From the NCBI GenBank assembly GCA_046761065.1, contig JBHIFL010000110.1:1-11787 (forward strand): a stretch of 11,787 bases of DNA. The letters run 5' to 3'. This document shows, piece after piece, positions 732 to 4,573 of this stretch. Each line of letters begins with the position of its first letter. Within the stretch, counting starts at the first letter, position 1. This DNA is from Candidatus Heimdallarchaeota archaeon (GTDB lineage: Archaea; Asgardarchaeota; Wukongarchaeia; Wukongarchaeales; JBHIFL01). A model generated the notes under the pieces. That model saw only the letters and a list, made by a program, of their open reading frames with translations, was not told the origin of the DNA and did not search any database. The position numbers and the translations under genes were made by a program.

Positions 732-1049
732 TTATTGCCGTAATCTTGAATTATCTGCAGAACAACTGGACGACACAGTTCCACTGCTACAAGTGGCTTC
801 TTTCTTACGGGTTAGAGCCGCGCGGATCCAAGCACTCGCACATCCCACCCCGGAATCGACAGTAATCGCTTCCGTCGGACAATTGCGCTGACAGGCGCCA
901 CATTCAATACATGCTTCAGGACGGACAAGCTGAGCCACATTGTCATTTGGAACAAATACAGCATGTGGACAAACAATACTGCACATCCCACAGTTGATAC
1001 ACAGCTCTGGGTTGTATTGTAAAGTATTGGAAATGGCTGTGAGGATCAT
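732..1049 (-). CDS. hgcB: Mercury methylation ferredoxin HgcB (2x[4Fe-4S])
   Basis: Two CxxCxxCxxxCP motifs (CINCGMCSIVCP, CIECGACQRNCP), the HgcB-type GVGCA cysteine and a Cys-containing tail. Lies directly downstream of hgcA. ATG 1049, preceded by GTGAT, is preferred over the TTG at 1070. Confidence 0.93.
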   Translation of the reverse strand: MILTAISNTLQYNPELCINCGMCSIVCPHAVFVPNDNVAQLVRPEACIECGACQRNCPTEAITVDSGVGCASAWIRAALTRKKEATCSSGTVSSSCSADNSRLRQ

Positions 1050-1066
1050 TTTAATCACAACAAGTA

Positions 1067-2062
1067 TCAAATTAATATACAGATAATCGTTAACACGGCA
1101 CTAATTCCAATCATTACTGCCATGATGGGGATATAGGTAAAAATCTCTCGTTTGACCCCGGTCTGGGATGTTAATGGTGTTGATCCAGTAAAGTTCAAAG
1201 CAATGTAGGCCGTCACTGGGGGTAAAGCTAGCATGTATATTAATGTCCAACCGGTTCGCAGCCATAGCACGGTATCTGGAACACCCATAAACTTTATCAG
1301 GGCGAATGGAAAGGCTACCAACCCACCTAGGATGAACCCCTTAGAGCTGAAGTCTCTTGTTGGAAGCCAAGGAAGTACAATAGGGAACCCAATTGTCCCT
1401 GCCAAGATGGTAGCAACAACTCCAGTAGAAGCTAGAACGCCATCAACAAAGAACAGCACGACTGCGGCAATCGCCATGTGTAAAAAGTAATGAACAAGTT
1501 CAACCGGAATCAAGACTAGACGGTCACGAATGGGAAATCGCACTCGACGCATCTCCGGGGTGGCCTGATGTGTTTTGAGATATTCTGGTAGATCAGCCGC
1601 CCGTACTGGGCCGTACTCAACTTTAAACCCTGTGTGTTTTTTAATTTCGTGCGCGGCAACTCCTGGGGCGCCTAATTGAGGTAATATCAACACACGGTGG
1701 GTGACAATGTCTTGTAGCTGAGTTAATGCAATCCGATGCGCTAGCTCATTTGTTCCAAAGGTTCCCTTTCCAGCAGCGCACCATACATTGATGCCCTTCG
1801 TGTCCAATACCAGGATATAGCCATCAATCCCAACGAGTGCTGACCGCAGCGCATCAAAGCTGAGTGTATAATTGGCAGTGACGAAAACGGGTGAATCCGC
1901 TGTGGGATTGCCCAGGCTGTACAGTCCTGGTTCGACTCGGTGTCCACTGCGGTTCACGCCCCAGCGTGCCAGAAAATGGTCCCAGCGGTTCGCCCAAGTG
2001 ATGGTGCTGGTAGTTAGTTGGATCTCGGGTGGTGTGGAGTTAGTGTTGACACCTAGCATCAT
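1067..2062 (-). CDS. hgcA: Mercury methylation corrinoid protein HgcA
   Basis: Diagnostic cap-helix motif GINVWCAAGKGTFG (NVWCAAGK at 1766-1789). N-terminal corrinoid-binding (CdhD-like) domain with PGLY, VFVTANY and LPQLGAPG. Hydrophobic C-terminal half with several TM segments and NFTGSTP. Start uncertain (2092, 2062 or 2059); AAGAGG precedes 2062/2059. Confidence 0.97.
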   Translation of the reverse strand: MMLGVNTNSTPPEIQLTTSTITWANRWDHFLARWGVNRSGHRVEPGLYSLGNPTADSPVFVTANYTLSFDALRSALVGIDGYILVLDTKGINVWCAAGKGTFGTNELAHRIALTQLQDIVTHRVLILPQLGAPGVAAHEIKKHTGFKVEYGPVRAADLPEYLKTHQATPEMRRVRFPIRDRLVLIPVELVHYFLHMAIAAVVLFFVDGVLASTGVVATILAGTIGFPIVLPWLPTRDFSSKGFILGGLVAFPFALIKFMGVPDTVLWLRTGWTLIYMLALPPVTAYIALNFTGSTPLTSQTGVKREIFTYIPIMAVMIGISAVLTIICILI

Positions 2063-2110
2063 TCGGCCTCTTATAAAAAGACTAGAACCCATTTCATATT
2101 TACTTACCTC

Positions 2111-2695
2111 TTATTTGGAGGTTTCGACCATCTGCCATCCCAGTTGATACGCTTTCTCTAACGCCTTTTTATTTTGCTGCACTTCACCTTTGACATCAAC
2201 GGATGGGACTGCTAGAGACCCACCCCATTTAAGAATGTTCGTTTCCGCTTGAACCAACCTCTGAAAAGGAACGATTGCTAATTCTGCCATCTTTATATCG
2301 GAGTCTCCACAAACAACGATCACTGCCATATTTTTTCCTCGCATTCTTGGAAGGTAGTGACTGTGAAACTTCCACTTCTCATCGTAGAGGGCGCACCAAC
2401 GGTCTAAGTACGCTTTCATCTGGGCAGTCATCGAGTAAAAGTAAATTGGGCAGCTATGAATGATCCCCTGTGACTGGAGAATTTTTTCAAGAACCAGTTG
2501 CATATCATCTTCTTGAACACACCGTCCCGTCTCGTTACAGCTTTTACAGTCCCGACATCCGTGAATTTGGAGTCTGTCGAGGACAATCTTTTCTACCTCT
2601 GCTCCATCGTCTCTTGCTCCTCTTAGTGCTTCATCCAGAAGGATATCACTATTCCCTCCACTTCGGGGGCTTCCTAAAACACCTAAGATCTTCAT
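2111..2695 (-). CDS. Iron-sulfur flavoprotein (Isf-like, flavodoxin/WrbA fold)
   Basis: FMN-binding start MKILGVLGSPRSGGNS, compact CxxCxxCx5C motif (CRDCKSCNETGRC), and PIYFYSMTAQMKAYLDR. ATG 2695 fits the family N-terminus better than the TTG at 2722. Confidence 0.9.
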   Translation of the reverse strand: MKILGVLGSPRSGGNSDILLDEALRGARDDGAEVEKIVLDRLQIHGCRDCKSCNETGRCVQEDDMQLVLEKILQSQGIIHSCPIYFYSMTAQMKAYLDRWCALYDEKWKFHSHYLPRMRGKNMAVIVVCGDSDIKMAELAIVPFQRLVQAETNILKWGGSLAVPSVDVKGEVQQNKKALEKAYQLGWQMVETSK

Positions 2696-2786
2696 TTGCA
2701 CTTCCCTAGTCCCTGTCTTCAATGGTTGCTTAAATGGTCTTTAGTTTCAGAGGTCTTACTTTGAGATTGTTATTTCAATCCTTCCA

Positions 2787-3716
2787 TCACAGAATAGAAG
2801 TAGGTTTGCGAGCCCATATGAAGGAAAGTGGATAAGGATTCGGCTGGTGGGATTTACTCATTTGAAATGTTGGAACCGATTTAATTCGAACTTTTTTATT
2901 CTTCTGTCTAGATTTCGTGCCAATCAGTAAAACATATCCAATCCCACCTTTATGGATGAAATCAGCCATCTGTTTATATTGGTCGCTGTTTTTGATATTT
3001 GCTGCCGCTGAGAGGGCGATAGAGTTCAACCCAGCTTGTTCCTCTTTTGTGTAGTCAATCATCTTAATGTTTTCAAGGCCAGCTTTCGTCATCATATCCT
3101 TGTAGGAAGCGATCGTCACTGCTCCGCCTATACAACTGCAATAGAGTGATGGATCACTTTTCACTACCGCTGGTATTTCCATCCATCTGATGACATCATG
3201 CATGATAACCCTTCCTCCAGGCTTCAGGACCCTCACCTTCTCCTTGAGAGCCTTCTGCTTGTCAGGCACTAGACTGATGACACATTCGCTTATAACCGCA
3301 TCAAAGATCTCGTCGTTGAAGGGCAGGTTCTCGGCATCGCCTAGCTTGATCTCCGCTACACCCTCTAAACCGGCCTGTTTCGCCCTTTTCTTAGCTAAAG
3401 AGATAGCTAGATTCGAAACATCAACGCCTACTGCTTTTCCAGTTGATACCACCTTTTCCGCGATATATAGTACCGTCCTTCCCGAACCTGACCCAACATC
3501 GAGAATCTTCATTCCTTCTTTCGGCGCGAGCTCCTTTATTAGCCGTTTATGGACTTCGTGAATAACTTTATCTTGTTGGGCTGTCTCACAACTCTGGCAA
3601 GAGGCCTGAAAGATCTCAACCTCGTCTGATTGGCAGCATTGAGCCTCTTTACTCCAGCGTGCGCTATATACTTGTTTCACGGTCTCTTTAATTTCTTCAT
3701 TGCTTATTGTTGTCAT
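2787..3716 (-). CDS. Class I SAM-dependent methyltransferase, arsenite methyltransferase (ArsM)-like
   Basis: SAM motif I ILDVGSGSG, GDAENLPF and RVLKPGG. ArsM-like elements: N-terminal IKETVKQVY..CC, ISECV (cf. ISNCV) and CSCIGGA (cf. GCxxGA). The ArsM GCG motif is absent, so no symbol is given. SD AAGGTG upstream. Confidence 0.8.
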   Translation of the reverse strand: MTTISNEEIKETVKQVYSARWSKEAQCCQSDEVEIFQASCQSCETAQQDKVIHEVHKRLIKELAPKEGMKILDVGSGSGRTVLYIAEKVVSTGKAVGVDVSNLAISLAKKRAKQAGLEGVAEIKLGDAENLPFNDEIFDAVISECVISLVPDKQKALKEKVRVLKPGGRVIMHDVIRWMEIPAVVKSDPSLYCSCIGGAVTIASYKDMMTKAGLENIKMIDYTKEEQAGLNSIALSAAANIKNSDQYKQMADFIHKGGIGYVLLIGTKSRQKNKKVRIKSVPTFQMSKSHQPNPYPLSFIWARKPTSIL

Positions 3717-3736
3717 CTCTTACACCTTAACATTTA

Positions 3737-3795
3737 TCTACTAATAATTGGCAGTAGAAAACTTTATAAACTTTTTCTGCCATTATCTAATTAGA
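3737..3795. promoter_or_regulatory. Bidirectional archaeal promoter with candidate operator repeats
   Basis: Palindromic TTTATAAA at 3763-3770 with an A-rich BRE-like element on each strand (AGAAAAC on +, AGAAAAAG on -). Flanked by TGGCAG (3749-3754) and CTGCCA (3777-3782). TCTACT-N10-AGTAGA at 3737-3758. Confidence 0.7.
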
Positions 3796-3805
3796 GAGGA
3801 GTAGT

Positions 3806-4573
3806 ATGGTTCTAAACTTAGAGAAAACAGCCAAAAATGAATATATATCCGGCCTTAAGATGTTAGGTTTATCGACTTATGAAGCATCAACCTTTTACAC
3901 TCTCATAACCCGCTCAGAGCTGACGGCTGCTGACCTCTGCTCCTTAACGGGTATTCCAGACTCCAAGATCTACCACACCCTCAATACTCTAGAGCAGAGA
4001 GGAATGATTGCTGTCCAAAAAGGACGTCCCAATCGTTTTAAGGCGCTAAAGCCAGATGAAGCGATGGCGAACTTGAAACATGGGCTGATTGAGGAGCACA
4101 GGCGGAAGTTGAGGATGTTAGAGGCGCTAACAACGAAGTTATTGACATTGTACGAGAGCATTGAAGGTAGGGAGGAGGTAGAACTCGCCTATATTATCCG
4201 CGGCATCAGAGGTATCCTCTATAAGATGAACAACCTAATCCGCCAAGCTCGCCGAAGTTTGCTTATATTCGTTTCTGACATGGAGATGTGGAGGGGGATC
4301 GAGCCATCAATCGTAGAGGCCGCAGGCCAAGGTGTCAAAATTTACCTAGGAATAACTAAGAATATCGAACAGACACCTATATTTGATCGACTTGGCACAG
4401 TAAAGTGGATTGACTGTCTTTGCGGCTTACTTGTAGTTGACGATCAGACGCTACTTGATATCACCGAGTGGCGTCCGAACGGGGCAATGGCTATCCTGAC
4501 ACAGGAACCAAACATTATCCGATTCACCTGGGAATACTACAAGAATCCTAAATGTTGCTCTCACGTAGAATAG
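3806..4573 (+). CDS. TrmB-family transcriptional regulator with Cys-containing effector domain
   Basis: TrmB wHTH (LGLSTYEASTFYTL...TGIPDSKIYHTLNTLEQRGMI...GRPNRFKAL), a coiled linker, then an effector domain (LIRQARRSLLI). CLC at 4415-4423 and CC at 4553-4558. SD AGGAG. Confidence 0.9.
   Translation: MVLNLEKTAKNEYISGLKMLGLSTYEASTFYTLITRSELTAADLCSLTGIPDSKIYHTLNTLEQRGMIAVQKGRPNRFKALKPDEAMANLKHGLIEEHRRKLRMLEALTTKLLTLYESIEGREEVELAYIIRGIRGILYKMNNLIRQARRSLLIFVSDMEMWRGIEPSIVEAAGQGVKIYLGITKNIEQTPIFDRLGTVKWIDCLCGLLVVDDQTLLDITEWRPNGAMAILTQEPNIIRFTWEYYKNPKCCSHVE

Follow-up and report, generated by a model that had tools for sequence, protein, structure and literature searches.

A divergent TrmB-arsM gene pair beside hgcAB in an Asgard archaeon: a putative archaeal counterpart of ArsR-linked mercury methylation genes

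The subject of this analysis is a gene cluster on contig JBHIFL010000110.1 (assembly GCA_046761065.1), a stretch of 11,787 nucleotides (nt) called here the window, in which the mercury methylation genes hgcA and hgcB follow an arsM-like methyltransferase gene and a gene for an Isf-type flavoprotein, while a gene for a TrmB-family regulator diverges from the methyltransferase gene. The locus is native to an Asgard archaeon of the Hodarchaeota type. On the evidence of comparative gene order, its stable evolutionary unit is the divergent pair trmB<>arsM and not the string of four co-oriented genes; the addition of isf-hgcAB to this pair is confined to one Hodarchaeota sublineage, in which arsM and isf are dispensable. 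To explain the whole, we lean, though only a little, towards a model in which TrmB would serve at arsM as a stand-in for the bacterial regulator ArsR and isf-hgcAB, added downstream, would be reached by read-through. Of the parts of the locus, the TrmB-arsM module has the greater novelty and generality.

Given the co-orientation of the four genes, a preliminary description of this DNA had postulated an operon and a neighborhood, trmB<>methyltransferase-isf-hgcAB, that should recur elsewhere. Among the 80 nearest HgcA loci, taken from species representatives, none has the methyltransferase, Isf or TrmB beside hgcAB, and the four-gene architecture is absent from 399 other genomes of the phylum. 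Synteny surfaced only through searches with TrmB and with the methyltransferase. Thus the trmB<>arsM half of the proposed neighborhood does recur, but the full string is found in one sublineage, and the four genes cannot be upheld as a conserved operon. Elsewhere among archaea, at least 19 loci have the pair trmB<>arsM but no hgcAB. Every cysteine-bearing TrmB orthologue (43-59% identical) whose upstream region is assembled lies divergent from an arsM-type gene, at a distance of 79-115 nt and in otherwise unrelated contexts; these loci are, besides the window, L132, L144/L147, L148, L149, and L150/L151. The TrmB protein P0122 (locus L154) was left out of the count, its contig ending 120 nt upstream of trmB. 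At L149, the paired methyltransferase, a more distant one, passes the curated ArsM model with 303.9 bits (cut-off 263). In a survey of 400 genomes of the phylum, the TrmB subfamily was present in 23, including the window's own, and 14 of the 18 evaluable TrmB matches (E<=1e-60) had a divergent arsM-like neighbor, although 13 of these 14 pairs come from one genus and so are not independent samples.

A different divergent partner was observed in some Asgard genomes, at loci L160, L161, L162, and L163, where the gene begins M(D/E)DK.K.LIA.GASV.ANCQPCLK and resembles a small AhpD/CMD-like CxxC protein; at L161, arsM follows it. Since NCBIfam lists ArsM/AhpD fusion selenoproteins, the pairing of an AhpD/CMD-like gene with arsM may be functional.

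Two relatives of the window show how the locus has been rearranged. In the sister species (loci L140-L143), trmB is separated by 671 nt from the divergent genes isf-hgcA-hgcB-cupin, and the body of arsM is gone. What is left of it within the 671 nt comprises the arsM promoter and first codons, 69% identical to the window, and the last codons and following spacer, 81% identical. Isf has been retained with hgcAB (90% identity) despite the loss of arsM. In a third, more distant lineage (L152/L153), HgcA is 75-77% identical to that of the window, trmB is convergent with hgcB-hgcA at a distance of 31 nt, and there is neither arsM nor isf.

The 89 nt between the starts of trmB and the methyltransferase gene contain a palindromic TATA element, TTTATAAA, at 3763-3770, with purine-rich runs on both sides that resemble the transcription factor B recognition element (BRE). 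Between this TATA element and the arsM start, at 3738-3757, lies an operator-like inverted repeat, CTACT-N10-AGTAG. The more general form, CTAC-N2-20-GTAG, stands beside GTAGAAAA/TATA in 9 of 9 orthologous trmB upstream regions and, from the phylum survey, in 15 of 17 (24 of 26 loci), with TrmB identities at these loci as low as 29%; by comparison, the pattern occurs in 0.9% of random 120-nt windows of the same genome. It is present in a single copy in the window, no second TrmB palindrome having been found upstream of isf, hgcA, or the downstream cupin gene. Pfu TrmB binds TACTNNNAGTA at BRE/TATA and blocks polymerase recruitment (PMC4158304). Like Pyrococcus TrmB, the regulator of the window is associated with a palindrome having TACT/AGTA half-sites at BRE/TATA, and repression would probably also be exerted by blocking access to the promoter. 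The spacer between the half-sites is longer and of variable length in this subfamily (N3-12), compared with N3 for Pyrococcus TrmB.

The regulator itself is a member of the TrmB family, with 64.8 bits against Pfam TrmB (PF01978; cut-off 25.6) and a marginal match to Regulator_TrmB (PF11495; 22.6 bits, cut-off 22.2) that spans profile positions 3-123 of 233. An AlphaFold2 model (predicted local distance difference test score 90) consists of a winged helix-turn-helix (wHTH), a long coiled coil, and an alpha/beta domain corresponding to the N-subdomain of the effector-binding domain. Its best fold match, over the full length, is TrmBL2 (5box/5bpd; E ~1e-17), followed by TrmB. The protein thus shares its architecture with the TrmB and TrmBL2 proteins of Pyrococcus and Thermococcus (Gindner et al. 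2014, PMC4158304; PDB 3qph, 5box/5bpd). It lacks the sugar-binding C-terminal subdomain of TrmB and TrmBL1, matching the 264-amino-acid TrmBL2 type, but unlike TrmBL2, it is paired with one specific target gene. In addition, it differs from these proteins in having conserved cysteines at 45, 204, 206, and 250/251.

In the TrmB protein of the window, all five cysteine positions (C45, C204, C206, C250, and C251) are occupied. The subfamily falls into 43 clusters at 90% identity, and its named members belong to Hodarchaeota and Bathyarchaeota. Across it, C45 (within the wHTH), C204, and the C-terminal NPxCC (C250/251) are near-universal, and C206 is present in most members. In one subgroup (P0123, P0125, P0127, P0129, P0130, and P0133), C45 (C45S), C206 (C206Y), C250, and C251 have been lost together. 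The loci of two members of this subgroup were looked up, P0123 in L140-L143 and P0129 in L152/L153, and in both, arsM is gone. That the cysteines serve the regulation of arsM is best supported by this joint loss of the cysteines and arsM. Furthermore, TrmB is only 64% identical between the window and the sister species, compared with 78-90% for every neighboring gene, and the group without the cysteines is more diverged from all outgroups than the group that has them. We infer that the cysteines sense a ligand such as As(III).

Repressors of the ArsR/SmtB family that sense As(III) use cysteine triads, such as those including the CVC of R773 ArsR and the C-terminal CC of AfArsR. The TrmB protein of the window is, like them, a small repressor-type protein whose gene is divergent from, or leads, arsenic genes, and its CxC together with the C-terminal vicinal CC resembles an S3 site for As(III). 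The two differ in fold and in family, which are unrelated, and for TrmB the binding of As(III) is a prediction. Its scores against ArsR/SmtB models (19.5 bits for HTH_5, PF01022, cut-off 22; 16.4 bits for NF033788, cut-off 55) place it outside that family. Nevertheless, a cysteine-rich TrmB recurs beside arsM in many archaea, which suggests that it does there the job that ArsR does in bacteria; as judged from such comparisons, TrmB probably substitutes for ArsR at arsM. The earlier proposal that TrmB stands where ArsR usually does is borne out in this sense, since in many archaea cysteine-bearing members of the subfamily have an arsM-type gene as their divergent neighbor.

The best match of the methyltransferase is the NCBIfam arsenite methyltransferase subfamily NF008823, and the S-adenosylmethionine (SAM) motif ILDVGSGSG is present. 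Cysteines are found at C27-C28, C40, C43, C145, C193, and C195. The segment SEC145VISLVPDK aligns with SNCVINLSPDK, and C195IGGA with CLAGA, of ArsMs with solved structures (5evj, 8xt7), and C145 and C195, equivalent to the As(III)-binding C174 and C224 of CmArsM, are invariant in 13 orthologues. At the N-terminus, where ArsM has the pair C44/C72, a conserved CC (27-28) and CxxC (40, 43) are found; a C-terminal tail of 40 amino acids is not shared by the orthologues. Orthologues that are 58-60% identical occur in arsenic-resistance contexts, namely an arsR-acr3-methyltransferase operon of another archaeon (L133/L134) and an ArsP/ArsD/Acr3 island (L135). The preliminary description of the enzyme as ArsM-like can thus be kept, given the aligned arsenic-binding pair and the contexts of the orthologues. 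Two features count against it: the score of 156.7 bits is under the NF008823 cut-off of 263 (orthologues reach 165-167 bits on the ArsM model), and the canonical GCGNP cysteine is lacking. A metagenome contig search with the methyltransferase gave only SAM-domain matches of 42% identity or less and was uninformative.

A different role for this enzyme has to be considered because a SAM methyltransferase gene lies two genes upstream of a gene for a corrinoid protein. Methyltransferase partners of HgcAB-like fusion proteins have been proposed to load the corrinoid, and a CpaM-like enzyme could in principle do the same for HgcA without being an arsenic enzyme at all. This possibility is very improbable. 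The CpaM model (NF043040) gives 57.2 bits against a cut-off of 180, compared with 157 for ArsM, so that CpaM itself was rejected as an identification. Moreover, most orthologues of the methyltransferase occur without any HgcA, some of them in ars operons; hgcAB persists in lineages without the methyltransferase; and purified HgcAB takes the methyl group directly from SAM (PMC11588087).

The flavoprotein encoded next has the flavodoxin-like FMN_red domain (PF03358, 75.5 bits) and the compact motif C47-X2-C-X2-C-X5-C, beginning at residue 47 (CRDCKSCNETGRC) and kept in 120 of 120 homologues among the matches listed. The compact motif of Isf has been defined as CX2CX2CX5-7C (PMC3164229), so the fold and the motif together agree with the Isf-like assignment made previously. 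The nearest named Isf homologues are bacterial (Syntrophales and Deltaproteobacteria, 53-54%). Identification as ArsH was also considered and was dropped, as there was no NCBIfam ArsH match.

HgcAB has no known physiological reductant (PMC11588087), and Isf beside hgcAB is a concrete candidate for the supply of electrons. The operon hypothesis also has a stronger form, namely, that four genes dedicated to one purpose co-regulate arsenic and mercury methylation, with Isf as the specific electron donor to HgcB/HgcA and with TrmB sensing both metal(loid)s. The co-orientation and short gaps, the retention of Isf with hgcAB after arsM was lost, and the missing reductant would all fit. In addition, ArsR control of bacterial hgcAB has been tested, and the genes are reportedly ArsR-controlled and arsenic-responsive (bioRxiv 10.1101/2022.10.17.512643; cited in PMC10349881). 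Yet the absence of the architecture from the nearest HgcA loci and from the rest of the phylum is not what a dedicated operon would predict, nor is the state of L152/L153, which lack both arsM and isf, or the loss of the TrmB cysteines where hgcAB is kept. Furthermore, Isf belongs to a large general family whose members are named only flavodoxin/WrbA. A dedicated operon is therefore improbable.

Taken together, these results lead to the following model. TrmB dimers would bind the CTAC-N-GTAG palindrome and so block access of TBP/TFB or of RNA polymerase to the bidirectional promoter, repressing both arsM and trmB. A thiophilic ligand such as As(III) would then bind the TrmB cysteines and bring about release, so that TrmB would take over the function of ArsR. 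The genes isf-hgcAB, perhaps with the cupin gene, came to lie downstream of arsM in a single Hodarchaeota sublineage. Because isf-hgcAB lacks an operator of its own and only 17-91 nt lie between successive genes, it would probably be transcribed, at least in part, by read-through from the TrmB-controlled arsM promoter. Such coupling is not obligatory, as sister lineages have deleted arsM and lost the TrmB cysteines but have kept hgcAB. It is this model that we favor slightly. A wider proposal can be put forward only tentatively. Under it, the subfamily would be the first branch of TrmB to sense metal(loid)s and would act as a thiol-switch repressor, through C45, C204/C206, and C250/C251, taking the place of ArsR at arsM promoters in Asgard and Bathyarchaeia-type archaea; in one Hodarchaeota lineage, arsenite control would extend by read-through to isf-hgcAB.

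About 35 nt before the isf ATG, the 91-nt spacer between arsM and isf has a TATA-like ATTTAAG, and it is 81% conserved in the species that lacks arsM, making an internal promoter possible. The hgcAB genes of L152/L153 have an upstream region of their own without the palindrome. Finally, TrmB proteins without the cysteines still adjoin hgcAB, so that arsenic sensing is not needed for the adjacency. All of these observations, together with the dependence among the survey pairs, weigh against the model. Alternatively, trmB<>arsM may be a self-contained arsenic module, and isf-hgcA-hgcB, with or without the cupin gene, a second transcription unit served by a promoter inside the 91-nt spacer; the two would adjoin only because the acquired genes landed there and the arrangement has been inherited. 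That most trmB<>arsM pairs lack hgcAB would then be expected, as would the survival of hgcAB both after deletion of arsM and in a convergent layout without isf; no TrmB palindrome precedes isf or hgcA, and hgcA of L152 has an AT-rich upstream region containing TTATATAA. However, the spacers are short, and no conserved T-run terminator was found between arsM and isf. (A run of T5 after hgcB and another in the isf-hgcA spacer are not conserved in L140.) The deletion in L140 spared the arsM promoter and both ends of the gene, so that a transcript could still run into isf, and across three rearranged lineages trmB has stayed within about 30-700 nt of hgcAB. Such independence of the two units is, on balance, less likely than the favored model, but it is a serious rival and deserves more credence than a dedicated operon.

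With regard to hgcA and hgcB themselves, the window contains an intact, genuine pair, as judged from profile scores and motifs, which is predicted to methylate Hg(II). HgcA gives 436.4 bits against NCBIfam NF040863 (curated cut-off 275) over profile positions 3-321 of 325, and its orthologues in L140 and L152 give 437 bits. The cap-helix motif NVWCAAGK, at residue 102 of a 341-amino-acid frame, fits N(V/I)WCA(A/G)GK with the cobalt-ligand cysteine, and the C-terminal membrane domain, with hydrophobic segments at 192-342, lies in a region covered by the hidden Markov model. HgcB gives 108.2 bits against NF040864 (cut-off 99); it is a ferredoxin with two [4Fe-4S] clusters, whose two CX2CX2CX3C motifs and GVGC70A are invariant in the orthologue alignment. 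Its C-terminus has two separated cysteines (ATC...SSSCS) without the vicinal CC that is present in HgcB of ND132; the orthologue in L152/L153 has a C plus a CC. Since both curated cut-offs are passed, the genes encode a true split HgcA and HgcB, not a member of the HgcAB-like fusion family (NF043039), against which HgcA of the window gives only 216 bits (cut-off 285). The preliminary description of hgcAB as real and archaeal therefore holds, in view of these profile scores, the cap-helix motif, and the archaeal RpoB of the bin.

Fusion proteins of the HgcAB-like type are carried by Asgard archaea (Lin et al. 2023, PMC10083202). One is encoded in the same genome as the window (G000:C74:2819-3838, minus strand); it is 34% identical to HgcA, gives 180 bits on the HgcA model, and is of the type reported for this group, for which mercury methylation is not expected. 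Among the 400 genomes of the phylum, true HgcA was found in one, the window's own; the remaining genomes contain the fused paralogue alone.

The nearest HgcA sequences are from Anaerolineae (75%) and Syntrophobacterales (70%), and an identical HgcA sequence was not found by exact look-up. In a phylogenetic tree, the placement of HgcA that had been called for came out only in part: the Hodarchaeota HgcAs form a single clade (Shimodaira-Hasegawa-like approximate likelihood ratio test, SH-aLRT, 99), but this clade is nested among Chloroflexota, Syntrophobacterales, and Methanoperedens sequences whose branching is poorly resolved. Grouping with Anaerolineae has an SH-aLRT of 87 in a tree of 83 rows and collapses in one of 37 rows. 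The GC content of hgcAB and isf, overall and at third codon positions (GC3), is within the 5-95% range of the genome; by these two measures no compositional trace of recent transfer was found, and composition is fully ameliorated. A single, old acquisition of isf-hgcAB from bacteria is likely.

The possibility that a bacterial contig had been mis-binned was checked because the nearest HgcA sequences are bacterial (Chloroflexota). The bin (4.4 Mb, 91% complete, 8% contaminated) contains an unsplit archaeal RpoB (1008 bits, cut-off 811). In tetranucleotide profile the contig takes 13th place among 43 of similar length, and in GC content it equals the bin mean. Three NCBI assemblies, with TrmB named "Candidatus Hodarchaeota archaeon," are collinear with the window over its full extent, their flanking proteins being 78-90% identical, and the identical gene order has been assembled from three more sequencing runs of one hydrothermal-vent study. 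A mis-binned or chimeric contig was rejected on the strength of the typical composition, this collinearity, the three other runs, and the occurrence on contig C42 of the same genome of further copies of three tandem membrane paralogues of the window (6745-8293, plus strand). These paralogues are 41-50% identical to one another, the first and third end in a zinc ribbon, and they are kept in the sister species. The contig is thus classified as archaeal, from a Hodarchaeota-type Asgard, in agreement with the archaeal origin that had been supposed.

The coordinates of the locus are collected in Table 1. Five co-oriented genes occupy 281-3716 on the minus strand, with trmB as a sixth, divergent gene on the plus strand. 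The intergenic gaps are 91 nt (methyltransferase-isf), 48 nt (isf-hgcA, from the ATG at 2062), 17 nt (hgcA-hgcB), and 76 nt (hgcB-cupin). The start of hgcA was placed at 2062 because an extension back to 2092 contains stop codons in two orthologues (L140 and L152). The five genes of the preliminary description and the gaps of 91, 48, and 17 nt are confirmed by the sequence and by comparison with orthologues; the cupin gene, which had not been counted, is a further co-oriented one.

Table 1. Features of the trmB-arsM-isf-hgcAB locus in window coordinates.
Feature	Position	Strand	Length	Remarks
Cupin (Cupin_2)	655..281	-	124 amino acids	Pfam Cupin_2, 53 bits
hgcB	1049..732	-	105 amino acids	
hgcA	2062..1067	-	~331 amino acids	Start is ATGATG at 2062/2059
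Isf-type flavoprotein	2695..2111	-	194 amino acids	ATG preceded by GGGAAGTG
arsM-like SAM methyltransferase	3716..2787	-	309 amino acids	
Divergent promoter region	3717..3805	.	89 nt	Shared by trmB and arsM
TrmB-family regulator gene	3806..4573	+	255 amino acids	

The cupin gene may belong to the transcription unit of the hgcAB string. Its orthologue in the sister species (L140) is syntenic and 85% identical. A cupin that is 70% identical is found at L154:983-1372 (minus strand); its tail-to-tail neighbor encodes a TrmB orthologue in which the C-terminal CC is retained, and no hgcB adjoins it. The cupin gene of the window may therefore belong to the TrmB neighborhood, not to hgcAB. Past the left end of the window, downstream of the cupin gene, a contig of the same organism (L137:1-5856) carries a cluster for a membrane-bound [NiFe] hydrogenase like Mbh/complex I (NADHdh, Proton_antipo_M, NiFeSe_Hases, Complex1_30kDa, CCG, and Fer4), which could supply low-potential electrons close to hgcAB.

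Elsewhere in the window, comparison with L140 reveals gene remnants with in-frame stops at 31-207 (plus strand; the last ~59 codons of a PadR gene), 5879-6533 (minus strand; an open reading frame (ORF) of 262 amino acids of unknown function), and 10128-10232 (plus strand; a C_GCAxxG_C_C gene). A Pyr_excise gene of L140 is wholly missing. Gene decay is thus seen on both sides of this region, the window having lost the PadR, ORF, and C_GCAxxG_C_C genes and L140 having lost arsM. At 8548-10005 (plus strand) lies the gene for a 485-amino-acid HpaB-family protein (4-hydroxyphenylacetate 3-hydroxylase / 4-hydroxybutyryl-CoA dehydratase-like), 90.5% identical in the sister species and with three paralogues (33-39%) elsewhere in the genome.

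Among known systems, the closest is the arsR-hgcAB arrangement of Pseudodesulfovibrio mercurii ND132 and related Desulfovibrio, reportedly described by Goni-Urriza in 2020 and Gionfriddo in 2023. There, as in the window, hgcAB is linked to arsenic-resistance genes and to a small regulator of the metalloid type, and arsM beside hgcAB has already been noted for such loci. The window differs in that its regulator is of the TrmB and not the ArsR/SmtB family and is divergent, not co-transcribed, in that the host is an Asgard archaeon, and in that an isf gene stands between arsM and hgcA. In putative bacterial methylators, acr3, arsC, arsM, and arsR have been found flanking hgcAB (McDaniel 2020, PMC7438021). 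A candidate regulator outside ArsR has also been proposed for archaeal hgcAB, namely, a gene of the PrlF/AbrB type that precedes hgcA in Methanomicrobia (Zhang et al. 2023, PMC10349881). That gene, however, is of the AbrB/SpoVT family and lies co-oriented directly upstream of hgcA, whereas the window has TrmB and no such gene beside hgcA. Metagenome-assembled genomes of Asgard archaea bearing hgcA and bearing arsM have been published (PMC12484752, PMC10060404). No link between TrmB and hgcA was found in the literature searched, in keeping with the earlier impression that the architecture had not been described. Some literature matches for TrmB with arsenite appear to concern the unrelated tRNA methyltransferase TrmB.

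How the expression of hgcAB is controlled, and why these genes are so frequently close to arsenic genes, are open questions in mercury biogeochemistry, for which the sole regulator tested so far is a bacterial ArsR. The locus described here shows the linkage of arsenic and mercury in an Asgard archaeon, built with an unrelated family of regulator, and it offers a computationally defined putative operator. It also forms part of a comparative series, in which arsM is present with the TrmB cysteines, arsM is deleted with the cysteines lost, or the locus is rearranged without isf. If the thiol-switch reading is true, the sister lineages without arsM and the cysteines would be natural "uncoupled" controls. 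More generally, the trmB<>arsM pair points to a new class of ligand for TrmB regulators, which so far have been known as sugar sensors or chromatin proteins, and, for archaea where arsM is widespread, it offers a candidate sensor of arsenic; the arsM regulators of such archaea are not addressed in the papers that the search covered.

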